Source of the DNA: Promethearchaeati archaeon
GTDB taxonomy: Archaea > Asgardarchaeota > Heimdallarchaeia > JABLTI01
Reading direction: 5' to 3'
NCBI GenBank assembly: GCA_013166835.1
Contig: JABLTI010000054.1
Location: 1 to 18,690, forward strand
Length of the DNA stretch: 18,690 bases
Part shown: positions 1 through 18,690 of the stretch, in pieces
How positions within the stretch are numbered: position 1 is the first letter of the stretch
Layout of the letters: each line of letters begins with the position of its first letter
Made by a program: the position numbers and the translations under genes
Notes under the pieces: generated by a model
Database searches by the model: none
What the model was told of the DNA's origin: nothing
What the model saw: only the letters and a program-made list of their open reading frames with translations

Positions 1-1943
1 TTTGTTAAGTTCTTCAATATTAATGCTTCACTAGCACAAGCTGCAACACAAGTACCACAACCTTCACAGAGAATCTCATTTATTACAGAATGATTATTGA
101 CATCATCGAATGTTATTGCTCCATATGGGCATGTTACAACACAGACCTTACAACCACAACATTTGTCTTCATCTACAGTTGAAACTAATGGTTCGTGGAA
201 TAGTTTTGGTTGGTTGAGAAGTGCTAGGGCTTTAACAGCTGCTGCACTGCCTTGTGCAACAGACTCAGGGATATCTTTTGGTGATAAAGCTGTGCCTGCG
301 ACAAGTAAACCGGATACTAAGCTTTCAACAGGTCGTAATTTCATGTGAGCTTCCTTGAAGAAACCATATTCATCAAGGCTGCATTTAGTTATTGATGAGA
401 TTATTTTTGTGTCAAAAGAGGGAATCATAGCAGGGGCTAAAATAACCATATCAGCTTCGACTTCTAATCTTTCACCAGTTAAAGTGTTAGCAGCCCAAAC
501 AATTGTCTTGTCGCCTTCTCTGAAAATCTTAGAAGGTTTGCCTCTGATATAGATGACTCCTTTCTCTTGAGCTCTTTGAATAAATTCTTCATAACCTCGG
601 CCTGCAGCACGTATGTCAATGTAAAAAATATAGACTTCTGTATCAGGAGCTTGATCTTTGAGAAGCAATGCGTGTTTGCCGGTATAGGTACAACATATTT
701 TACTACAGTATGCCATGTGATGTTCAGGATCACGGCTTCCCACACATTGAACGAAAACAACTGTTTCAGGTTTCTTATGGTCTGAAGGTCTTAAGACATC
801 ACCACCAGTGGGTCCTGAACTACTTAGTAATCTTTCAAATTGGATTCCATCAATGACATCTACATCTGCACCAAATTCATACTCTTGAACTTTTGAGATA
901 TCGTATAAATCAAAACCAGATGCGATAATTATTGCACCGTAATCTTTGTTGATAGTTTCAGTCACCATATCGTAATCAATTGCTTGTGGTCCACATGCAT
1001 CTCTACATTTTGAGCAGACGAGTGGGTGAATACCTAAACAATTTTCTGGATCAAGTGTGTAAACGCTAGGAACAGCCTGTGGGAAAGGCAGATAAATTGC
1101 TTTTCTTGGACTTAATCCTCCTTCAAATTCATTTGGTACGATTACTGGACAAACTTTTACACAATCATCACAAAGTGTACATTTGTCCGGATCGACATAT
1201 CGAGGATATTTCTTAATGTCTACATTGAAATTACCAACAAATCCAGAAATGTTTGTTACTTCTGCATTGGTAATTAACTCAATCTTGTCATGGTGACCAA
1301 TCTGTGACATTTTTGGAGAAAGAATACATTGAGAACAATCAAGTGTTGGGAATGTAGAAGATAATTGTGCCATATGTCCACCTATGGTTGGTGATTTCTC
1401 GACTAGAGTTACATCAAAACCGGCATCAGCAATGTCTAATGCGGATTGTATTCCGGTAATTCCTGCACCAATAACTAAGCATCTTCTATTAACATCAACA
1501 GAAGCAGGTGTTAGAGGTTCGTTTAATAAAGCTTTTTCAACTTTTGTTTCAATAATTCTTATTGCTTTCTCTGTTGCTTTACCTCGTTCAGTATGAACCC
1601 AACTACATTTCTCACGTATATTGGCTATCTCAACTTCGTATTTATTCATCCCAGCACTTTCAGCTGCTGTTCTAAATGTTTCTTCATGCAATGTTGGTGA
1701 GCAACACGCACAAACAATAGAACTTAAGTTATGGGATTTTATTGCTTCGGTTAGCTCTTTTTGACCTGGTTCAGAACACAAGTAATGACTATGTGTTGTG
1801 AAAACAACACCTTCTAGATCTTTAGATACTTCAGCAGCTTTTTGAACATCTACCATTTCAGCAATGTTTTTACCACAGTGGCAAACAAAGACACCAATAC
1901 GTTTTTTTGACGCGGGATTATTTTTCTTACTTTCAGCAGTCAC
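1..1943 (-). CDS. hdrA: Heterodisulfide reductase subunit A-like FAD/Fe-S flavoprotein (3' end beyond window)
   Basis: Manual translation from GTG at 1943 (AGGAGG upstream) gives MTAESKK..RIGVFVCHCGKNI..LCSEPGQ..CACCSPTLHEETF..ANIREKCSWVH..LVIGAGITG..EKSPTIGGHMAQLSSTFPTLDCSQCILSPKM..CTLCDDCVKVCP..QCVGSRD..YCSKICCTY..PKDIPESVAQGSAAA..CCGCKVCVVTCP..CEGCGTCVAACA. The frame is open for 647 codons to the window edge, so it is missing from the ORF track. Confidence 0.96.
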   Translation of the reverse strand, partial: MTAESKKNNPASKKRIGVFVCHCGKNIAEMVDVQKAAEVSKDLEGVVFTTHSHYLCSEPGQKELTEAIKSHNLSSIVCACCSPTLHEETFRTAAESAGMNKYEVEIANIREKCSWVHTERGKATEKAIRIIETKVEKALLNEPLTPASVDVNRRCLVIGAGITGIQSALDIADAGFDVTLVEKSPTIGGHMAQLSSTFPTLDCSQCILSPKMSQIGHHDKIELITNAEVTNISGFVGNFNVDIKKYPRYVDPDKCTLCDDCVKVCPVIVPNEFEGGLSPRKAIYLPFPQAVPSVYTLDPENCLGIHPLVCSKCRDACGPQAIDYDMVTETINKDYGAIIIASGFDLYDISKVQEYEFGADVDVIDGIQFERLLSSSGPTGGDVLRPSDHKKPETVVFVQCVGSRDPEHHMAYCSKICCTYTGKHALLLKDQAPDTEVYIFYIDIRAAGRGYEEFIQRAQEKGVIYIRGKPSKIFREGDKTIVWAANTLTGERLEVEADMVILAPAMIPSFDTKIISSITKCSLDEYGFFKEAHMKLRPVESLVSGLLVAGTALSPKDIPESVAQGSAAAVKALALLNQPKLFHEPLVSTVDEDKCCGCKVCVVTCPYGAITFDDVNNHSVINEILCEGCGTCVAACASEALILKNLT

Positions 1944-2519
1944 TTATTTTTTAACCTCCTGCTGTTTTGCTTTTTGAGCATATTCCATCCCAGTTTTGAA
2001 TGCTCTCTCATTTAATTTTTGGAATCTTGCTGGCACCATTTGTAGAGTTGCTTTAAGAATTGCATTTTTGCTTATTAGTGAGTTTAGTTCAGCAAAGAAT
2101 CCTAGCATTACAATATTTGCGACTATTTTTCTTCCTAATTTTTTCTCTGCAATTTCTGTTGCAGGGATTTTGTAAATTTTACTAGCTTTATTCATTCTTT
2201 CATCAACGTGTACTAAATTCTCCTCGTAGAGAAATAATCCCCCTTCCTTAAAAGAATCAATATATTTTGTGTAAGCTTCTTTGCTCATACAAATAAAGAT
2301 CTCAGGTTCTGTGACATAAGGGAAATCTACTATTTCGTCAGATATGACAACGTTGCTTGCACTTGCTCCACCTCTGCTTTCGGGTCCATATGATTGAGTT
2401 GTTACACTGTTTTTTTTCTCAATAAATGATACTGCAGAGCCAAGGATTTTCCCAGCTAAAGCAATACCTTGTCCACCAAAACCACAAATTCGTATTTCAT
2501 GTCGAGTCATTTCTTTCAC
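1944..2519 (-). CDS. korC: 2-oxoacid:ferredoxin oxidoreductase gamma subunit
   Basis: EIRICGFGGQG, QSYGPESRGGAS and ANIVMLG motifs; operon context. Confidence 0.93.
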   Translation of the reverse strand: MKEMTRHEIRICGFGGQGIALAGKILGSAVSFIEKKNSVTTQSYGPESRGGASASNVVISDEIVDFPYVTEPEIFICMSKEAYTKYIDSFKEGGLFLYEENLVHVDERMNKASKIYKIPATEIAEKKLGRKIVANIVMLGFFAELNSLISKNAILKATLQMVPARFQKLNERAFKTGMEYAQKAKQQEVKK

Positions 2520-2521
2520 CC

Positions 2522-3385
2522 TTATTTCTCAGTTTTTTTCCCAATACTTAGGATTCGTTCATCAAGTGTTGGGCGACCTGCTTTCTTAATAAATTCGCCA
2601 ACGATAAGATCCTTTCCGAATACTATGTTAGTATCTTTCGGATCAATTCCATGTTTAATGACTGTGTGCATTTTGAAGAAATTCAGCATCTTTAGACCTG
2701 TGTCAAATTTGTTCCTTCGACCAAATGTTGTAGGGCAAGGATTAACTACTTCAATAAAGGAAAATCCTTTGCTCATAATTGCAGTTTCCATTGAAGCCAT
2801 TAATCGTCTAGCGTTTAGGGAAGTCCAACGAGCAACATAAGTTGCACCTGCAGCAGCGACTAAAGCACTCAAATTGAAGGGGGGTTCTACATTACCATAA
2901 GGAGAGGTAGTAGTCCACGCATATTCTGGTGTAGTTGGTGCTAATTGACCACCAGTCATACCATAATTGAAATTATTTGAACAAATTACTGTGATATCTA
3001 CGTTTCGTCTTGCTGCGTGAATGATGTGATTTCCACCTATTGCAAATAAATCACCATCACCAGAAAAAACTATTACATTTAAATCTGGATTTGCTAATTT
3101 TAATCCAATTGCAAATGGTATTGCTCGACCATGAGTAGTATGAAAAACATCAAGATTCAGATACCCTGAAACCCTGCCTGTGCATCCAATTCCAGATACA
3201 ACTGCAAATTTTTTCAAATCTAATCCGGTATTAGTTAATGCTTGGACAAAACATGATAACATGCTTCCAAGTCCACATCCGCTGCACCAGACATGTGGTA
3301 GTCGATCCCACCGTAATAGATGATCCATAGGATGTTTTTTAGCTTCCAATATTGTATCTCGAACATACTCTTCTGGAGCGGTCAT
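2522..3385 (-). CDS. korB: 2-oxoacid:ferredoxin oxidoreductase beta subunit (TPP-binding)
   Basis: WCSGCG, SGIGC, HTTHGRA, GDGDLFAIGGNH, NYGMTGGQ and CPT motifs; ATGA overlap with the alpha gene. Confidence 0.95.
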   Translation of the reverse strand: MTAPEEYVRDTILEAKKHPMDHLLRWDRLPHVWCSGCGLGSMLSCFVQALTNTGLDLKKFAVVSGIGCTGRVSGYLNLDVFHTTHGRAIPFAIGLKLANPDLNVIVFSGDGDLFAIGGNHIIHAARRNVDITVICSNNFNYGMTGGQLAPTTPEYAWTTTSPYGNVEPPFNLSALVAAAGATYVARWTSLNARRLMASMETAIMSKGFSFIEVVNPCPTTFGRRNKFDTGLKMLNFFKMHTVIKHGIDPKDTNIVFGKDLIVGEFIKKAGRPTLDERILSIGKKTEK

Positions 3386-4548
3386 TTTTTAGCAACTTCC
3401 TCTATTTTCATGAGAATTTCTTTTGGTGTATGAACCATTCCACCAAGCTTTGAAGAAAGAACGATAGGAATTTTCCTATTTGTTGCTTCTTTAACTTCCT
3501 TTATTATTTGCCCATTATTTATCTCCGCAACAACAATTGCATTAGTTTTTTCTGCAAGTTTTTCTATTAGTTTTGTTGGGAAAGGCCAAATAGTGATTAA
3601 GCGTAAGAGCCCTGCCTTAATGCCCTTTTTACGAGCGAGATCAACAGCTCCTTTTGCTGAACGTGAAGTAATACCATAAGAAATGACTATAACTTTTGCA
3701 TCATCGATCTTATAGCTTTCAGTTTTTCTTATTTTTTCTTCGTTCAGTAGTATTTTATCACATAATCGTTTCACAAGTATTTCTTGAGTTTCAGCATTAA
3801 TTACAGGATAACCCTTTTCGTTATGAGTTAAACCTGTTACAAATACTTTGTATCCTTCACCTGCTGCAGCCATTGGAGGAATTAAATCTGCATCCGGTTT
3901 AAAGGTAAGATAATCTTTGGGAGAGCCCTTAGGTTTCTTTCGATTCTTAATCTTTATCTTACTTTTCGGAGGAATGATTAGTTTCTCAAACATATGGCAT
4001 ATCGATTCATCTGTTAGCATTATCACAGGAGTACGATATTCTTCTGATAAATTGAAACATTCTATAGAAAGATCAAATGCTTCCTGAACAGAATTCGGTG
4101 CAAGTGCTATTATTTCATAATCACCATGAGAACCCCATCTTGCTTGCATAACATCTTGTTGTCCAACTAGTGTTGGGAGACCAGTTGATGGTCCACCTCT
4201 TTGAACGTTAATAATTACACAAGGAGTTTCGGTCATGGCTCCAAGACCAATATTTTCCATCATTAATGAAATTCCGGGTCCCGAGGTTGCTGTCATAGAT
4301 TTCTTTCCAGCCCAAGATGCACCCAAAATTGTAGCCATCGATGCAATTTCGTCTTCCATTTGAATGAAAACTCCACCTAATAGGGGAAGACGTTGAGAGA
4401 TTCGTTCTGCGATCTCACTTGAGGGTGTAATTGGGTAACCGCCAAAAAATTTGCAACCAGCAGCAAGACATCCTTCAGCAATTGCTTCATTGCCGCTAAC
4501 ATAGTGCTCCCCGGTTAAAACTTCACTTTGTGGTGCTTTTTTACTCAT
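3382..4548 (-). CDS. korA: 2-oxoacid:ferredoxin oxidoreductase alpha subunit (2-oxoglutarate-type)
   Basis: GNEAIAEG, GYPITPSSE, QMEDE, ATSGPG, QRGGPSTGLPT and QARWGSHGD motifs. Confidence 0.95.
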   Translation of the reverse strand: MSKKAPQSEVLTGEHYVSGNEAIAEGCLAAGCKFFGGYPITPSSEIAERISQRLPLLGGVFIQMEDEIASMATILGASWAGKKSMTATSGPGISLMMENIGLGAMTETPCVIINVQRGGPSTGLPTLVGQQDVMQARWGSHGDYEIIALAPNSVQEAFDLSIECFNLSEEYRTPVIMLTDESICHMFEKLIIPPKSKIKIKNRKKPKGSPKDYLTFKPDADLIPPMAAAGEGYKVFVTGLTHNEKGYPVINAETQEILVKRLCDKILLNEEKIRKTESYKIDDAKVIVISYGITSRSAKGAVDLARKKGIKAGLLRLITIWPFPTKLIEKLAEKTNAIVVAEINNGQIIKEVKEATNRKIPIVLSSKLGGMVHTPKEILMKIEEVAKK

Positions 4549-4591
4549 CCATTTTCGCCTTACTTTAAATTTTCTTTAATTTTTTCATATT

Positions 4592-4888
4592 TTAATCAGT
4601 TTTTGCACCAGATTTTTCTTTATCCTTCTCAAGAAATATTGAGAATTCGGGACAAATTAATTCACAAAAACCACATTTTGCACAATCGTCCATCGTTTCA
4701 CCTTTTTTCAATCTGGGAGGATGATATCCCTTAGCATTGATTTCGGGAGAACTTTCCAATATCTCAGTAGGACAATACATAATGCAAAACAGGCAACCTT
4801 TACAGCGATCTGTAATAATTTTTAGCTGCCATTTCTCCTGCTCTTTAAATTCTGGGGGTATAAACGATATTGCTTTCTTAGCTGTCAT
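4592..4888 (-). CDS. korD: 2[4Fe-4S] ferredoxin-type delta subunit of 2-oxoacid oxidoreductase
   Basis: CKGCLFCIMYCP and CAKCGFCELICP clusters plus NAKGYHPP; first gene of the kor operon. Confidence 0.9.
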   Translation of the reverse strand: MTAKKAISFIPPEFKEQEKWQLKIITDRCKGCLFCIMYCPTEILESSPEINAKGYHPPRLKKGETMDDCAKCGFCELICPEFSIFLEKDKEKSGAKTD

Positions 4889-5221: not shown

Positions 5222-6148
5222 TTAATATGAAACATCTAAAGGATAAAGATCCCGAATGATTTTAACTAAGTTTATTGATTTATCACAATAAGGACTTATA
5301 ATTTTCAATACATTTCGAGATATTTCGATTGCACGTGGTATAGAATCATGAGGACCAACAACCAAAGCTACTATATGTCTATGTTCCTTTACTAGTGGGA
5401 TTTTGAAGCTGGCAATTTCTATAACTTCTTCCCCGGACCCATGAACTCGCATAGTTCTTGAAAATATCGTCACTTTTCGTTTTAATTCCCGCAATGTTGC
5501 TAATAGTGTAAGGTTAGGTTTTTCTGTTAAAACAGCTTCGTTTATTGCTCCACTTTCTTCGCAAAGTGTTATACAAGCAACAATCTTTGTATAATTAATA
5601 ACTCGTTCTCGTCGTTTGAAGAGAATTCTATTCAACCATTCTTCAATAGCATACAAACCTTCTCCTGTTTTTGATGAGAATTTGAAAAGATCAACATCAC
5701 ACTTGGTTTTATCAAGATCCATAAGACTGAGATTTGTCATTAATTCTCCCACAGAAGCAGAATTTGGCAAGTCCGATTTAGAACCCAGAACAAGTAACCT
5801 TATAGGAAAATTCTTCTCCACTAAATCTTTAATCAGCTTTCGACTTTGCTGAAAGATATCCTTATTAGTTGAATCAACAAGAAAAAGTAAAGCATTTGCA
5901 CCAAGAATGGAACGTTTCCATAGAGTTTTCTTTTGAGGGATATGATCATCTAAATCCCAAGTTAATAAAGAAAAATTATCTAGAATTTGTAACTCAAATT
6001 CCGTTGTATTACTCACCGAAGCCTCGATGAATTCATCGGATTGAAGGATTCGTTTCACAAATTCAGTTTTTCCAGAATTAACTAAGCCTACTATAGCAAT
6101 TGATATTTTCACATCAAATTTCGTCATGAGATTTTTTATAGCAGACAT
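5222..6148 (-). CDS. Arf/Sar-like small GTPase domain (degenerate G3/G4) fused to a C-terminal longin/roadblock-like domain
   Basis: IAIVGLVNSGKT P-loop, TWDL, LWKRSILGANALLFLVDST, LLVLGSKSDLP and FSSKTGEGL..EWL match the Arf layout. The C-terminal ~120 aa show a beta-hairpin/helix/beta-strands/helix pattern (fold inferred). Confidence 0.8.
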   Translation of the reverse strand: MSAIKNLMTKFDVKISIAIVGLVNSGKTEFVKRILQSDEFIEASVSNTTEFELQILDNFSLLTWDLDDHIPQKKTLWKRSILGANALLFLVDSTNKDIFQQSRKLIKDLVEKNFPIRLLVLGSKSDLPNSASVGELMTNLSLMDLDKTKCDVDLFKFSSKTGEGLYAIEEWLNRILFKRRERVINYTKIVACITLCEESGAINEAVLTEKPNLTLLATLRELKRKVTIFSRTMRVHGSGEEVIEIASFKIPLVKEHRHIVALVVGPHDSIPRAIEISRNVLKIISPYCDKSINLVKIIRDLYPLDVSY

Positions 6149-6318: not shown

Positions 6319-7269
6319 TTATTGAGTTTCCTCACTCATAAATTTCTTTAAGCGAGCTAATTCTCTCAACATTTCCATTCGCAAACCGCTAATAGTTTGT
6401 CCATCGCTATCAGTTGCTGGTGTAGCTGATGTGGTAGGAGCTGAAGTTGGTACGGGAGGTGGAGCCATATCTGAAGTTGTTGGTGGTGCAACAGGTGATT
6501 GTGTTGGAAGTCTTGGTGGTAAAGGTGGTGTAGAGATAGTTGGAGGTGCAACACTAGGCGGAACAACTGTTGTTGGTCTTGCAGTTGATGATACAGGGGG
6601 TATTTTTGGTGGGATAGGAATTGGAGATGATGGTTTTGTTGGAGGAGATCCTGTTGGTATTGATGGAATTGTAGGAACTGAAGGTGGAGCACCAGATGTT
6701 GGTGGTCCTGTGGGAGGTAATCTTGGAGGAGCTGCTCCGGGAACAGGGGGAGCTGTGGGAGGAATTCCTGGAGTACCTGATGTTGGGGGAGGTGGTGTTG
6801 TTGGAGGTGGCATTACTTGATCTCTTAATCGATCTCTGCTTGACTCAAGACTTTCAGCAAGTGATTGGTATTCTTGAGCACCAGATCTTCTCTTCAAATC
6901 AGCATCAATTTTAGTAATTCTAGCTTTATATCTACTAGAAAGACTATCACTTACAGTTGAGCTTATGCGTTTACTTCTTCTTGCATCTTTTACTGCAGAA
7001 AGAGCAGTACTTGCTGCAACACGCTCTATGGACAAAATAGTCATAACCTCTCGAGGATCAACACTTGCGGCAGCACCTTCGGACATTGGTTCTGAGGATG
7101 CTAATGCAGCTAATGCAGAGACATCTACTCCTTTCTTTCTTCTTGCTGTAGCTATCCAAATAATAGCAATTAGAAGTATAATTGCAAACCAGAATATTGT
7201 TGCCCAGATAATTCCGGACATTCTTTCGCTTACGTTGGGTAAATTAAATATGAAATCATACCAAGCCAA
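6319..7269 (-). CDS. Single-pass membrane protein with helical region, long Pro/Thr/Ser-rich tail and C-terminal amphipathic helix
   Basis: TTG start with GAGGGG upstream; hydrophobic IIWATIFWFAIILLIAIIWIATA followed by RRKK; ~135-aa Pro-rich segment; C-terminus ISGLRMEMLRELARLKKFMSEETQ. Confidence 0.85.
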   Translation of the reverse strand: MAWYDFIFNLPNVSERMSGIIWATIFWFAIILLIAIIWIATARRKKGVDVSALAALASSEPMSEGAAASVDPREVMTILSIERVAASTALSAVKDARRSKRISSTVSDSLSSRYKARITKIDADLKRRSGAQEYQSLAESLESSRDRLRDQVMPPPTTPPPPTSGTPGIPPTAPPVPGAAPPRLPPTGPPTSGAPPSVPTIPSIPTGSPPTKPSSPIPIPPKIPPVSSTARPTTVVPPSVAPPTISTPPLPPRLPTQSPVAPPTTSDMAPPPVPTSAPTTSATPATDSDGQTISGLRMEMLRELARLKKFMSEETQ

Positions 7270-7324
7270 TTATTTTGCCCCTCATTCTTTTTTATCTTTA
7301 TGAGTATTAAATTCTCCGAATTTT

Positions 7325-10430: not shown

Positions 10431-11393
10431 TTAAAGTTTTAACAAATTGAGATTCTTGAGAGCTCTATAACTTCGTTCACCCGTTTCTAAGGGAGAAGCG
10501 CTGTATGAATTCATCACTTTCTCAAAAATCGCTTCATTTATAGGTCCTATTCCAACCGCGGTTTTTGTTCCAGGATCAAGTTGTGTTTTTCCTGCATCTC
10601 TGATTAAGGAGCTGTTAATCTTTAGTTTCTGAATTTGACGATTGATTCCAAGTAAATCTTCTTCACTTTTAACTGTCCAGATTTCAATTGGTTTGTTTTT
10701 AAAATCCCAGTTCAAACCTTTTTCTGAAAGCAAGCTAACAATTGCATGTGCCGTTTGAACGCTAAATTTGCCTTTACCCATTCGAATGTCTTTCCTTAAT
10801 ACTACTCCAATCATTTGCTGAGACATGTTAACTAAAGTATCATTTTTCACTAATAGGACCTTATTGCTCTGCCAAAACGATTCTATACTATTTTTGTTCC
10901 ACAAGCCTTTCAATTGAGGTTTTAAGATTAAATCTGGTTGATGAAAGGGAACTTGACTTGTGGATAAAATGAAGCCTTCACTATCTTCTCCTCGAATTTC
11001 CAGCAAAACATCTCCTAGAAACTTTTTCTCTAATTTCCTTAGCGATCTACGAATCGCAATATCATGCAAGTGAGCAGCATCAGTTTCTTGAATAGAGTAA
11101 TCAAATCTTGAGTCTACATTTGAAGGAGCTGTATCATAGACATCTTTAGCATAAGTTACTAACCATTCCAGAATCTCTGGATTATCTTTAAAGAAATGAA
11201 AATAACCAGTTTCGTAAAGTTCCAATGCTTCCTCTTGAGAATGTAATTTATTATTTACTAGATGAAGGATTTTCCAGTTTCCAGAACCAAATTTCTCCTC
11301 TAATTCATTTCTTCGTAATTTTTTCTTCTTCCCAGCATAACCAGGTCTACCTAAGATTATCCAATCATCGAATGCTTTGAAAGTACCTGTCAC
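10431..11393 (-). CDS. pth2: Uncharacterised N-terminal domain fused to peptidyl-tRNA hydrolase 2
   Basis: C-terminal VVLRKDIRMGKGKFSVQTAHA and IRDAGKTQLDPGTKTAVGIGP are Pth2 signatures; ~190 extra N-terminal residues; GAGGA before the GTG start. Confidence 0.85.
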   Translation of the reverse strand: MTGTFKAFDDWIILGRPGYAGKKKKLRRNELEEKFGSGNWKILHLVNNKLHSQEEALELYETGYFHFFKDNPEILEWLVTYAKDVYDTAPSNVDSRFDYSIQETDAAHLHDIAIRRSLRKLEKKFLGDVLLEIRGEDSEGFILSTSQVPFHQPDLILKPQLKGLWNKNSIESFWQSNKVLLVKNDTLVNMSQQMIGVVLRKDIRMGKGKFSVQTAHAIVSLLSEKGLNWDFKNKPIEIWTVKSEEDLLGINRQIQKLKINSSLIRDAGKTQLDPGTKTAVGIGPINEAIFEKVMNSYSASPLETGERSYRALKNLNLLKL

Positions 11394-14288: not shown

Positions 14289-15587
14289 TCAAGTTATAAG
14301 GGGTAGCGTGAGTAGGAATAATAGGGTGGAGGAGACGAGGTTTGAGAGTGCAGCAATTACTGGAACAGCAAGATTGTCAGGATCTAAGCCTCTCTTAAAT
14401 GCGAAAATTATTAGCAAGAACGCTATGGATTGAACTACTAAGAAACCAATAAAGTTAATCGCGAGTGAAATACCTAGTACCAGACCGATATGCTGAAAGT
14501 CTCCTGCAAATATTGAACCAAAGATCCCATAGAATAAGTGCAGAACAAAACCAGCAAGACCTACCCCTATTAAATTCGTCCACAAATCCTTATCTTTAAT
14601 CGCAGAGAGGTTTGGTTTTAGAGTACCTAAAGCTAGATTTGTAGAGGTAGTATTTGCTATGATAGTTACTTCATCACCCAGTGTATCTATTAATGCAGGA
14701 TAAACTAAGAACAATCCACTAATATTCTTTAGTGCAACATCTGCTTTACTAAGAATACCGCCTGTCAATGAGTTTATAGTTAATGTGACGGTTTGAACTG
14801 GGACAGCTTGCTTGAGTATTTTTCTGTAATCCTTATTTTTTACTTTTATACCAACTAAAACTGAAATGAAAACTAAATACAGAAATGCAGGAATAAATGC
14901 GAAATAGGTTCCTCTTGTTATTGAATTAAAACCCGATTCATTATACCAATTAGCAGGTTTCAACATACTAATCATTGCAGCATAGAGGAGAGTGCTTAAG
15001 ACGTTGTTTACTGTAGACATTGTGGGATATACCCAGATATCTGGATTCAGTTTTCTTTTGAACATAAAGAAAGCCATGAAACTAGCGATTTGTGATGAAA
15101 TCAAAGATGCAAAGGTTAGTGTCAAAATTGGTATAACAATGAAAGGTAAGGGATTTGGAATTCGATTTGCTCCTTGTATTATCAAGTTTATAATATAGGA
15201 AATAACACCAATCCAAAGACCATTGAAAGCTCCTAAAGTTAGTGTTGCTGAAATTAATGTGTAATACTGTTTTGTATTCTTGAGAATTTTGGGTTTAATA
15301 GAACCGAGATGCAAACCAGTACCTAGTCTACTAACTAAAATCCCTATCCCTCCATCAGAAGATAGTAACGGAGGATAGAGAAGTATGATAAATGCTCCAG
15401 CTTTAGCGAAAACCTCGGCAGGATCAGTTCTACTAGCATATTCCAGGAAAGTAAAGGTGCCAATACTTCCTGCACCAAGACCGAAAACATCAAAGAGAAG
15501 AGCAAGTAATGCTTGAACAGCAATTAAGAATGTGATTCTAATAACGGTTGGTTTTTTGAGCCATTCCTTTATTTTTACTCTATTCAC
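14289..15587 (-). CDS. MgtE/SLC41-family cation transporter with two membrane repeats
   Basis: About 10 hydrophobic segments; SRLGTGLHLG, LNPDIWVYP, TNLALG and GLDPDNLAVP motifs. Confidence 0.88.
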   Translation of the reverse strand: MNRVKIKEWLKKPTVIRITFLIAVQALLALLFDVFGLGAGSIGTFTFLEYASRTDPAEVFAKAGAFIILLYPPLLSSDGGIGILVSRLGTGLHLGSIKPKILKNTKQYYTLISATLTLGAFNGLWIGVISYIINLIIQGANRIPNPLPFIVIPILTLTFASLISSQIASFMAFFMFKRKLNPDIWVYPTMSTVNNVLSTLLYAAMISMLKPANWYNESGFNSITRGTYFAFIPAFLYLVFISVLVGIKVKNKDYRKILKQAVPVQTVTLTINSLTGGILSKADVALKNISGLFLVYPALIDTLGDEVTIIANTTSTNLALGTLKPNLSAIKDKDLWTNLIGVGLAGFVLHLFYGIFGSIFAGDFQHIGLVLGISLAINFIGFLVVQSIAFLLIIFAFKRGLDPDNLAVPVIAALSNLVSSTLLFLLTLPLIT

Positions 15588-15894: not shown

Positions 15895-17280
15895 CTATCC
15901 TATGAAAGCTATAACTGCGGTAGAAAGCGTTTCAGCATGACTTCCAGCCACTCCAGGAAGCATTATGAATGAGAACACTATAATGAATCCAGCACATGCT
16001 AAATCAGCTAAACAAGCCGTAAGAGGTATTGCAAAATTATCTGGATCAATTTCTCTTCTAAACGCAAAGATTGACAAGACATAAATTAAAGAACCAACAA
16101 TTATGAATCCTAATATATTTGCTAATATCGTAACAATCATGACTAATATTATAAGAACAATAATTGGTCTACCAAGTTCTTCAGATATAATTCGAACCTC
16201 TTTAAACTTAATGAACGTTCCAACAAGACCTAGAAGCGCTGTAATGATTATTCCACCCGCTCCAATACCCGAAAATTTAGTCCAAACCGCAGGTTTTCTA
16301 AATGATTGTATCTTCGGTTCCGTATAACCAGCTGAGAAATCCGTAATTAGCATATTGGCAAAGATAGCATTTTGATCAACCAGAGTACCTATCAGTGCGG
16401 GAAATGCAACTAATAACTGAGGATAGATTTCTAAGGCTGCCTCACCTTGTGTGAGGATGAAGCCTGTAATTGTACCTATAATAGCACTAGCGAAAACTGC
16501 AAAAACTGCTTCTTTCATCATTTTTCTGTATTCATGATCTTTTCTGTTTTTCATTACTATATAGAATGTACCAGCAAGAGCTAGTAATGCAGGAATAATT
16601 GCTATATAAGTAGCAAGCATTTCATTTCCTTGTGCAACAGCGAAAACTTCTTGTCCATTTACTTCAATAAAGGGATGATCCCACCCCCATGGTCTGAGAG
16701 CAGCTAAAGCCCCAGCAAAAGTTACTGTTATAAGAATATTGTTTACAGTAGACATCACTGGCACTACGTAAACATCTGGATTCAATCCTCTTTTATAAGT
16801 GAAGAAAGAAACAGCACTTGTTATTTGAGTTGAAATGAGTGCTGCAACAGTCATAACAAGTATTGGAATTACAAAAAAGAATGTGGGATTGTAAACCTTC
16901 AAGTCAGCGGGAAAAATTAAAAGATTCATAATATAAGTTACAATACCAACTAAGAATGCATCTAACATAGCAATTGTTAAAGTTGAAGCAATCAAACTCC
17001 TGTAAACAGGTGTGTTTTTTCTAAAAGTAGGTTTCACAGTACCCAAATGCAAACCAGTGCCTAATTTTCCAGCAAGGACAGCTATATCTCCTCTTGCTGC
17101 TAATAAGGGACCATATAATAATAAAATCCATTTTATTTGTTGAGTATTCATTGCTACATTAGCAATGGTACCTGAAACAATTCCGCCGGAGTCGAAGGCA
17201 AGTGCTATCATAGCTTGGATAAATATTCCAAAAAACATATTCACGGCAGTTCTTTTGCCTATGCTCGACGTTGATGACAT
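15895..17280 (-). CDS. MgtE/SLC41-family cation transporter with two membrane repeats (paralog)
   Basis: GKLGTGLHLG, GLNPDVYVVP and IDPDNFAIPLTACLAD motifs; GGTGA before the ATG; clearly similar to 14289..15587. Confidence 0.88.
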   Translation of the reverse strand: MSSTSSIGKRTAVNMFFGIFIQAMIALAFDSGGIVSGTIANVAMNTQQIKWILLLYGPLLAARGDIAVLAGKLGTGLHLGTVKPTFRKNTPVYRSLIASTLTIAMLDAFLVGIVTYIMNLLIFPADLKVYNPTFFFVIPILVMTVAALISTQITSAVSFFTYKRGLNPDVYVVPVMSTVNNILITVTFAGALAALRPWGWDHPFIEVNGQEVFAVAQGNEMLATYIAIIPALLALAGTFYIVMKNRKDHEYRKMMKEAVFAVFASAIIGTITGFILTQGEAALEIYPQLLVAFPALIGTLVDQNAIFANMLITDFSAGYTEPKIQSFRKPAVWTKFSGIGAGGIIITALLGLVGTFIKFKEVRIISEELGRPIIVLIILVMIVTILANILGFIIVGSLIYVLSIFAFRREIDPDNFAIPLTACLADLACAGFIIVFSFIMLPGVAGSHAETLSTAVIAFIG

Positions 17281-17307: not shown

Positions 17308-18690
17308 TCATTGTACATGCGAAATCACGCATCCTAATTTTTCGTGTAATTGGCTAACTTCCTCTGCAGCTTCTTTTGCAGCTTTTTTAGCAACTTTCTT
17401 AGTTTCCTTTTCAGCTGCTTCCATGGCTGCTTCCTCTGCTGCTTTAATAGCTACTCTTTTACCAGTGCGCTCAACAACTCTCTCAGCTGATTTCTCAGCT
17501 ACTTCTTTCGCTGCCTCTGTAGCTGCATCTTTCACTATTTTTTCAGGTTCATCTACCGCGGATGTTTCTTTTATTGCTACAGTAGCAGCTTTCTTGGCTG
17601 CTCGTTCGGTTTCAATCTTAACTGCATCCTTAACAACCGGTTCAATTTCTTCTGTTGCTTTTTTCTCAGCAGCTTTTGTTACTTTCTTAATAACTGTTTC
17701 AGACTTTTCTTCGATTGTATCCTCTGCTGCTTCTTTTACAGCTTGTTCAACTTTTTTACGGGCATCGTCAACAGTTTTCTTAGCAGCATTTTCAGCAGCA
17801 TCTTGAACTACTTTCTTTGCTGCATCTTCCTTCAGTCTAGGTTTGTCTCCTTTTTTCGTCTTCATGGTTTCTTTAACAACCTCGGAGACGATCTTGTCAG
17901 TCATTTTCTTTGTTACAGTTTCAACAGCTTCTTCAGCAGCTTCTGAAGCTGCTTTCTTGGATGCTTTTTCTGTTGCTTTTTCCGCTGCTTTACTTGCAAC
18001 TTCTTTTACTGTTTTCTTTGATGCTTCTTTTGCAGTTACCTCTGAAACTTCTTCGGAGACTTTTTCAACGACCTCATCTACCACTAACTCTGCTGCTTTC
18101 TTAGCTGCTTCTATCTCCGCTTCTTTTTCTTCTACTGCTTCTACTTCGCGTTGTTTGAAAGCATTACAAGCATCTCTTAATCCTGTGAAGATAATTGTAT
18201 CACCGACTCGAATTTTGGTCCTTCTTCTTGGTTTGAAGTAGTGACCGCCAGTTCTTTTGATCGCTAAGACCCTTATCCCGAATTCATCAAGATAATTACC
18301 AGCGGGAACTGTTTTATCAACAATTGATGATGATTGTTCAACTATCATTTCGAAAATATTGTCCGTTGATTCCTCAACCACAAGCTCAATAATGGGGTGT
18401 GAAGGGAGTTCAGCTAGAACTGTCTTAGCAATCTGATTAGCTGAATCAGAAATGTTTTCAGTGGCTTCTATAATTCTAACAAGACCTTGAAGAGCTGATA
18501 TTTCTTCAGAGGAAGTTCTTGATAAACGTAAAACAGCTATTTCTGCTTTATTTCGTATGGTATCAACTCGTTTCTCCATATTAGTAACGAGATGTGCTAA
18601 TTCTTTATTATTATAAAGAACAGCACCATATGCAAGGTCAACCATAACTTCACTGGTATCTTTTAATGCGATTAGATAATCAACAATGTT
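17308..18690 (-). CDS. PhoU-like plus TrkA-C (RCK_C) domain protein with long Ala/Glu/Lys-rich helical tail (5' end beyond window)
   Basis: The frame is open to the window edge (NIVDYLIALKDTSEVMVDLAYGAVLY). ATENISDSANQIA fits a PhoU-like domain and GIRVLAIKR..P..TKIRVGDTIIFTG fits TrkA-C. Confidence 0.88.
   Translation of the reverse strand, partial: NIVDYLIALKDTSEVMVDLAYGAVLYNNKELAHLVTNMEKRVDTIRNKAEIAVLRLSRTSSEEISALQGLVRIIEATENISDSANQIAKTVLAELPSHPIIELVVEESTDNIFEMIVEQSSSIVDKTVPAGNYLDEFGIRVLAIKRTGGHYFKPRRRTKIRVGDTIIFTGLRDACNAFKQREVEAVEEKEAEIEAAKKAAELVVDEVVEKVSEEVSEVTAKEASKKTVKEVASKAAEKATEKASKKAASEAAEEAVETVTKKMTDKIVSEVVKETMKTKKGDKPRLKEDAAKKVVQDAAENAAKKTVDDARKKVEQAVKEAAEDTIEEKSETVIKKVTKAAEKKATEEIEPVVKDAVKIETERAAKKAATVAIKETSAVDEPEKIVKDAATEAAKEVAEKSAERVVERTGKRVAIKAAEEAAMEAAEKETKKVAKKAAKEAAEEVSQLHEKLGCVISHVQ

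Follow-up and report, generated by a model that had tools for sequence, protein, structure and literature searches.

A membrane-anchored Asgard archaeal protein with a phylum-wide conserved helix at the end of a proline-rich arm and a tentative link to the actin family

Actin regulators of the WH2, Ena/VASP and WASP types are built in the order targeting element, proline-rich region, and short amphipathic helix with LKK. The WH2 domain is defined by a short amphipathic helix, a flexible linker and an extended LKK[T/V] segment, and tandem WH2 domains occur in nucleators. Membrane tethers such as ZipA, TonB and cTAGE5/TANGO1 have an N-terminal anchor, a long proline-rich spacer and a C-terminal binding part, with coiled coils before the proline-rich tail in cTAGE5/TANGO1. 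Asgard archaea have actin, profilin, and gelsolin. Here we analyze a gene on the minus strand, at positions 6319–7269, of contig JABLTI010000054.1 (assembly GCA_013166835.1) from a Promethearchaeati archaeon of the Heimdallarchaeia; the whole stretch of 18,690 nucleotides that was analyzed is referred to as the window. A preliminary description of this gene proposed a membrane-tethered actin nucleation-promoting factor with a WH2-like end. Our analysis indicates that the product is probably a membrane tether, which presents a docking helix on a floppy, proline-rich cytoplasmic arm, and points tentatively to a member of the actin family as the partner of that helix.

In Asgard archaea, the nucleation machinery that recruits profilin–actin for the initiation or elongation of filaments was still undiscovered as of 2022, according to PMC9433394, and the Heimdall and Thor profilins bind polyproline weakly, with dissociation constants of 0.3–3.3 mM (PMC8410842). 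An archaeal protein that binds an actin through its C-terminal end is arcadin-2 of Pyrobaculum (PDB 5LY3), which is encoded in the crenactin cluster and whose conserved last 17 residues form a helix in the hydrophobic groove of crenactin; ParR binds ParM in the same way (PMC5173319). The window protein is likewise an archaeal protein with a conserved helix at the extreme C terminus, and the soluble form of its family, like arcadin-2, is encoded next to an actin-family gene in one archaeal family (see below). Unlike arcadin-2, it is membrane-anchored, carries a long proline-rich arm, and is not encoded beside an actin gene. We found no sequence similarity between the two; with E ≤ 10 as the threshold, the PDB profile search yielded only GCN4 constructs and Lem22. 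Arcadin-2 depolymerizes filaments; groove binding by the window protein is our proposal.

The stretch 6319–7269 is a stop-free open reading frame (ORF) of 316 codons followed by a stop codon (6319–6321), and is confirmed as a real, conserved gene, beyond chance. Full-length orthologs, with the frame kept, are found in 36 of the 41 genomes of the class. In addition, 47 proteins in the protein collection match at E ≤ 1e-3, every one unnamed or called hypothetical; where labels are present, they read Heimdallarchaeota or Asgard group, apart from a single Thorarchaeota and a single Bathyarchaeia label. The TTG at 7267–7269 is likely the start of the gene, because the N terminus is conserved in distant orthologs (pre-anchor residues MAWYDFIFNLP in the window protein, compared with MSLIDWFENLPP) and because a Shine–Dalgarno-like hexamer, GAGGGG (7278–7283, minus strand, read directly), lies 8 nucleotides upstream. 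The G+C content of the gene stretch is 0.40, against 0.30–0.33 in the flanks, which is what proline codons would give.

The features named in the preliminary description, a transmembrane helix followed by RRKK, a helical region, a proline-rich tract, and a terminal sequence, are all present in the translation and are borne out by AlphaFold2 prediction on an alignment of 32 sequences (all coordinates are on the minus strand). The protein begins with a short conserved pre-anchor segment (residues 1–17, MAWYDFIFNLPNVSERM; 7219–7269), which is predicted to be extracellular from the charge distribution described below. A single transmembrane helix follows (residues 18–42; 7144–7218), lying within a predicted helix of residues 15–43 with a predicted local distance difference test (pLDDT) score of about 90 and reaching its Kyte–Doolittle maximum of 2.72 at residue 19; the hydrophobic segment itself spans residues 19–42. 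The next four residues, RRKK (residues 43–46; 7132–7143), form a positive-inside signal. Residues 72–152 (6814–7056) are predicted to fold into a cytoplasmic two-helix hairpin, comprising helices 72–98 and 104–152 (pLDDT about 90), which is conserved in the membrane-anchored members. The chain is then predicted to be disordered from residue 153 to 292 (pLDDT under 60), and residues 153–288 (6406–6813) constitute the proline-rich arm, with 52 prolines in 136 residues (38%) arranged in blocks that are conserved within genus and family. Its motifs are PPP at 154, 159, and 270, PPPP at 159 (the longest proline run), PTAP at 171, RLPPTGP at 183, and PPLPPR at 248. The protein ends with a predicted amphipathic helix of residues 293–315 (ISGLRMEMLRELARLKKFMSEET; 6325–6393; pLDDT 76–87), within which residues 296–311, LRMEMLRELARLKKFM, correspond to 6337–6384. 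The likeness to ZipA, TonB and cTAGE5/TANGO1 is one of layout only, as the C-terminal part of the window protein is a single helix and not a domain.

The charge distribution around the anchor supports an N-out/C-in orientation. In 31 of 31 single-anchor members of the alignment, the 15 residues that follow the hydrophobic segment hold more lysine and arginine than the 15 that precede it. In addition, the soluble relatives from other classes lack the hydrophobic segment altogether (11 of 11, with a maximum 19-residue Kyte–Doolittle mean of at most 1.06). Because of these two observations, the proline-rich arm and the terminal helix are placed in the cytoplasm, in accordance with the side proposed in the preliminary description, and an extracellular proline-rich tail, which would have spoken against an actin regulator, is removed from consideration.

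With the whole protein, the only Pfam match is BatA, on the transmembrane segment; this identity and that of DUF4381 were dropped, as both matches cover the membrane segment alone. Pfam searches with the helix, the hairpin, the distant orthologs and 52 library proteins returned nothing informative except Ras (in P0099) and a weak CdvA match (in P0101). The ESM Atlas returned unnamed archaeal clusters only, none of which scored above 0.85 or exceeded a TM-score of 0.33. In a fold search of the AlphaFold2 model, the hairpin alone was matched, and generically; only one match put the terminal helix against the hairpin, with a root-mean-square deviation of 10.3.

By sequence comparison, conservation across the phylum is confined to the terminal helix. 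The last 28 residues share 57% identity with distant class members, against 13–30% for the rest of the protein, and ten helix columns are invariant in the class-wide alignment. A 34-position profile of the C-terminal end, used for the genome and phylum searches, finds matches in 219 of the 301 genomes drawn from the phylum, in most of them a single one; weaker yet genuine members in further families were confirmed by reading their ORFs. The window protein scores 76 bits against this profile (E 9.2e-21) and is the single matching ORF of its genome, and in a position-matrix scan of 4,231 ORF tails it scores 57.6 bits, the next best tail reaching 9.4. The preliminary description had suggested such a profile search for the co-occurrence of the C-terminal motif with proline-rich tracts; the helix is carried by anchored as well as soluble proline-rich proteins in most of the phylum's genomes that were searched, and by a few other carriers. 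The family can be defined by the motif [ST]-x-[IV]-x-x-L-[RK]-x-E-M-L-x-E-L-x-R-L-K-x-[FIL]-M after a proline-rich disordered tract, both of which are present in the window protein. We name the family, here newly defined, the Asgard Pro-rich docking-helix proteins; the portions of the literature that were searched, among them passages of PMC12962969, hold no description of it (supplements, which lay outside the search, might list an unnamed orthologous group).

The same helix is attached to different carriers. Type A carriers, to which the window protein belongs, consist of an anchor, a hairpin, a linker rich in proline, glycine and proline, or acidic residues, and the helix. Type B carriers are soluble, about 210–260 residues long, and combine a different N-terminal helical region with an L-x-x-L-L-S-G-like motif, GPPKAP-type repeats, and the helix. 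In a profile–profile comparison of the two types, only the last 33 columns align (probability 99.1%, E 5.5e-19); the homologous unit that they share is therefore the helix, whereas the arm before it is similar in composition. A search of 1.84 billion representatives yielded 65 proteins at E ≤ 1e-3, nearly all with the helix at the extreme C terminus. Further arrangements occur among the library proteins: three tandem copies at the N terminus of P0052, two copies in a Ras-like GTPase (by Pfam) with a zinc ribbon (P0099), and two copies each in P0100 and P0106, the latter of which adds a zinc ribbon and a longin-like end. Together with L134:1225–1641 and L135:1231–1680 (both minus strand), these proteins have from one to three copies of the motif, and the zinc ribbon among them has the form CxxC...CC-C. 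In genomes of one family (f14), the helix motif also stands near the C terminus of a Sec23/24-like protein (L133:1300–2964, minus strand), which has the zinc finger, the trunk (Sec23_trunk, 33.7 bits) and the beta-sandwich (Sec23_BS, 36.3 bits), both matches being above their cut-offs, and lacks the usual helical and gelsolin end; small zinc-ribbon proteins are further carriers. A nearly invariant helix on such diverse carriers behaves, we infer, like a docking motif for a common and conserved partner.

One genus of the class (g4: L027, L073; for example G033:C38, G025:C8, G039:C1, G269:C169, and G037:C152) has family proteins of about 560–575 residues with about ten membrane segments instead of one, often encoded by two genes 2–2.3 kb apart on the same strand.

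From these elements we propose the following arrangement. The single N-out/C-in helix would fix the protein in the cell membrane and place the two-helix hairpin at the cytoplasmic face, from which the disordered, proline-rich arm of roughly 135 residues would hold out the 23-residue amphipathic helix as the working part. The terminal helix, a modular element, would dock a strongly conserved protein of the cytoplasm and thereby recruit it to the membrane. The likeliest partner would be an actin-family protein, either Lokiactin or an actin-related paralog, in whose hydrophobic groove the helix could lie in the manner of the C-terminal helices of arcadin-2 and ParR and of the helical part of WH2; the proline-rich arm may contribute weak profilin binding. 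We consider the tether with its docking helix probable. The assignment of the partner to the actin family is put forward tentatively, and the explanation as a whole, from tether through docking helix to actin-family partner, is to be read as a candidate that may well prove wrong in its last step.

The evidence for an actin-family link is circumstantial. On contig C176, the genome carries a genuine actin gene (PF00022, 448 bits), in line with what an actin regulator would need, and there are weaker actin-family matches elsewhere, C149 among them. Actin is 76–99% identical across the class, and so strongly conserved a protein would fit a nearly invariant docking helix. In family f14, the type B gene is followed by a co-directional gene for an actin-related paralog 160–1000 nucleotides downstream, in nine of nine genomes from six genera; a PIG-L gene stands between the two in some of these genomes and not in others. 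The paralog scores 280–295 bits, compared with 441–445 for the main actin of the same genomes, and fits the actin-related proteins described for Lokiarchaeia in PMC9834061. A conserved gene of roughly 120 codons follows the paralog directly at each of the five f14 loci (L057:2827–3186, L064:4163–4498, L069:3493–3852 and L070:3316–3669, all on the minus strand, and L065:7534–8273 on the plus strand, where it is duplicated). This gene gave no Pfam or PDB sequence match; it was considered as a profilin, and by sequence is not one.

A number of observations weigh against an actin-family partner. The f14 synteny is limited to one family and concerns the paralog and not the main actin; the surrounding block of about 6 kb is conserved as a whole in that family, and the related genomes are not independent of each other. 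Of the 22 neighborhoods scanned with Pfam, only L057, from f14, has an actin gene, and the other 21, the window included, have none; four more f14 loci, found by phmmer and outside the Pfam scan, do hold one. The main actin of the present genome is on another contig, with none in the 18.7-kb window. Five genomes from four other families have actin (5/5), and three of them Snf7, yet show no match to the motif at E ≤ 5, although this contrast between motif-free and motif-bearing genomes is uninformative about the partner. The presence of the helix on coat-like and GTPase proteins suits a general hub as well as it suits actin, and its wide hydrophobic face, acidic on one side and basic on the other, would suit self-association too. 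For the helix, Pfam offers no match at E ≤ 10, WH2 included, and no relevant solved chain was touched by sequence. A likeness of the end of the helix to the Lifeact peptide was given no weight. As to profilin, the genome, which is 84.75% complete, has no PF00235 match at E ≤ 1, PF00235 being the only profilin model applied and one that may miss divergent Asgard profilins. Finally, among the type A loci scanned outside family f1, 11 of 13 adjoin rpiA, mostly together with a PIN/PilT-type ATPase gene and a tRNA-intron endonuclease gene. The order family gene, rpiA, PIN/PilT-type ATPase (with a KH domain in some), tRNA-intron endonuclease recurs in at least seven families (L062, L066, L071, L117–L122, L125, and L126), and such a housekeeping context says little about function. 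In f2, the family gene comes directly after the gene for V/A-ATPase subunit D, and in f18 a subunit F gene stands beside rpiA.

The literal form of the preliminary proposal, a canonical WH2 domain which together with polyproline makes a WASP/VASP-type nucleation-promoting factor, draws on the order anchor, polyproline, and helix with LKK and on the actin of the genome, and is highly improbable. Against Pfam, the C-terminal 34 residues give no match even at E ≤ 10, neither to WH2 (PF02205) nor to the VASP tetramerization family, and a genome-wide PF02205 scan at the same threshold matched two other ORFs and missed 6319–7269. LKK occupies residues 307–309, inside one continuous helix that is predicted to run on to residue 315, with no linker between helix and LKK. 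Of 29 distinct instances of the motif, 27 extend to the position that follows the two basic residues, and all of these have F, I, Y, or L there, never T or V. The absent match, the missing linker and the hydrophobic or aromatic fourth residue together rule out the terminal helix as a WH2 domain. Nor does the window protein have the EVH1 and GBD elements of Ena/VASP and WASP proteins; its proline runs do not exceed PPPP, and an Arp2/3-binding central or acidic element is not evident in its sequence. What stands of the preliminary interpretation is the architecture, the cytoplasmic side, the presence of actin and, through f14, some link to the actin family; what falls is the WH2 identity. Failed membership would still be compatible with a helix that works like the helical part of WH2, and the tandem array of P0052 resembles tandem WH2 nucleators. 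The preliminary description itself cautioned that the helix could serve oligomerization in the way of the VASP tetramerization domain. On this view, it would be a short coiled coil that forms dimers to tetramers, like that domain or a leucine zipper, with the multivalency of the proline-rich arms as the working principle. The pattern of the helix is heptad-compatible, with a continuous hydrophobic stripe (I293, L296, M300, L304, L307, and F310/M311) flanked by conserved acidic (E299 and E303) and basic (R297 and K308) residues, and tandem copies in one chain (P0052, P0099, and P0106) could fold into bundles. The only solved chains touched by the profile apart from Lem22 are GCN4 zipper constructs, and neither match is significant (E 0.31–0.37 for GCN4). 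However, there is no Pfam coiled-coil or VASP_tetra match at E ≤ 10, the helix is short (about three heptads), and hydrophobic and charged positions that are both nearly invariant throughout the phylum would be unusual for a mere zipper. On balance, self-association as the main role is distinctly unlikely.

The hairpin, the gene neighborhood and the other carriers of the helix suggest two further partners. In the first case, the protein would be an ESCRT adaptor and a functional analog of CdvA, with a hairpin of the steadiness-box/CdvA type and a terminal MIM1-like helix that docks the MIT domain of Vps4, or of another MIT protein, at the membrane; we judge this to be rather unlikely. CdvA (PF18822) and the ESCRT-I steadiness-box proteins resemble the window protein in that they associate with the membrane and combine a helical hairpin with an unstructured stretch and a short element for partner binding at the C terminus, putative in the window protein. 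Among the products of the genome are two ESCRT-III proteins and a Vps4-like ATPase with an MIT domain (50.4 bits, contig C125). In the fold search, ESCRT-I headpiece hairpins rank 1, 2, 4, and 7 among 48,161 chains (Z 9.0–10.0) and the S. islandicus CdvA filament is listed at Z 8.8; Z values of 8 or more are, however, shared by 103 chains, and for helical hairpins values under about 13 are in the generic, uninformative range. One of the 52 library proteins (P0101) has a weak CdvA match that stays under the cut-off of 30 bits (19.9 bits, E 7.8e-4), whereas none of the 32 aligned members matches PF18822 at E ≤ 1, and the Pfam scans gave no PRC-barrel match. The MIM1 consensus is a C-terminal helix in which positions i, i+4, and i+7 are aliphatic, i+8 is basic, i−3 is acidic, and i+3 is arginine. 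The spacing of M300, L304, and L307, followed by K308, fits this consensus, but the charged positions do not, i+3 being E303 and i−3 being R297. Against the motif matrix, the tails of the two ESCRT-III proteins score −6.1 and −16.8 and come 18th and 332nd among the 4,231 ORF tails. The motif hidden Markov model misses both, and the tails resemble the motif only generically. A similarity between the CdvA and steadiness-box hairpins has been published (PMC10936438). In our data, none of the 22 Pfam-scanned neighborhoods contains a Snf7, Vps4, or MIT gene, and the soluble forms of the family lack the anchor and show, in their N-terminal region, no detected homology to the hairpin.

In the second case, the helix would dock a small-GTPase, longin/roadblock, or coat-like module, and the protein would be a membrane receptor in a trafficking or GTPase hub, loosely comparable to cTAGE5/TANGO1 for COPII or to the Ragulator anchor for Rag GTPases. 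The downstream neighbor in the window (5222–6148, minus strand, co-directional, with a gap of 170 nucleotides) encodes an Arf-like GTPase (Pfam Arf, 65.6 bits) and is a possible functional partner. It has a C-terminal domain of about 120 residues (185–308) with a predicted beta-beta-alpha-beta-beta-beta-alpha-alpha order, whose topology looks like that of longin or roadblock domains; Arf structures (Arl3/Arf1 and Asgard ArfR1 at E 1e-13) took up the Foldseek list, from which no fold could be assigned to this domain. In f1, the gene sits between a MazG-like gene and the Arf-like GTPase gene, and the GTPase adjacency is kept in nine of the ten other f1 loci. Moreover, 4 of the 21 other neighborhoods scanned with Pfam (L058, L062, L067, and L071) include small-GTPase genes at distances of up to about 6 kb, and the helix occurs on the Sec23/24-like protein, on the Ras-like GTPase with its zinc ribbon, and on zinc-ribbon proteins with a longin-like end. 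The adjacency, however, is not seen outside f1, and chance adjacency is to be expected, Asgard genomes being rich in small GTPases. Carriers that share a motif suggest a common partner, not that the partner is among the carriers. We regard the hub as improbable, and continue to favor, with the reserve expressed above, a tether whose helix docks an actin-family protein.

Other genes of the window are set out here. The redox run at 3–4888 (minus strand) looks like ordinary metabolism: an Fe–S flavoprotein gene that runs off the window end (HdrA-like by eye) is followed by genes for four 2-oxoacid:ferredoxin oxidoreductase subunits, of which alpha and delta are assigned by Pfam and gamma and beta are named by eye. 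On the other side of the family gene, 10431–11393 (minus strand) encodes a peptidyl-tRNA hydrolase of the PTH2 type (residues 197–296), with an N-terminal region of about 190 residues that has no Pfam match. Two genes for MgtE-type transporters (14289–15587 and 15895–17280) stand beside a gene at 17308–18645 (minus strand) for a PhoU and TrkA-C protein, whose low-complexity tail of about 270 residues is rich in lysine, glutamate, and alanine.

The family is nearly universal in the genomes searched, usually single-copy, and unnamed, and it joins a proline-rich arm to an almost invariant helix. It may even be the missing actin-assembly factor of Asgard archaea, in which the helix would bind the barbed-end groove of Lokiactin or of an actin-related paralog and the proline-rich arm would feed profilin–actin, though we think this unlikely. 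If true, the membrane anchor in this lineage, or the N-terminal helical domain elsewhere, would set where filaments grow, nucleation would fall to the relatives that carry two or three helices in tandem, and the family would be a pre-eukaryotic functional forerunner or analog of the Ena/VASP, WASP, and formin FH1-type machinery. The 30-residue peptide at the end of the protein offers a concrete and cheap bait for the partner. Whatever that partner may be, actin, Vps4, a GTPase module, or the helix itself, these proteins would constitute a new conserved link between membrane and cytoplasm in the closest archaeal relatives of eukaryotes.

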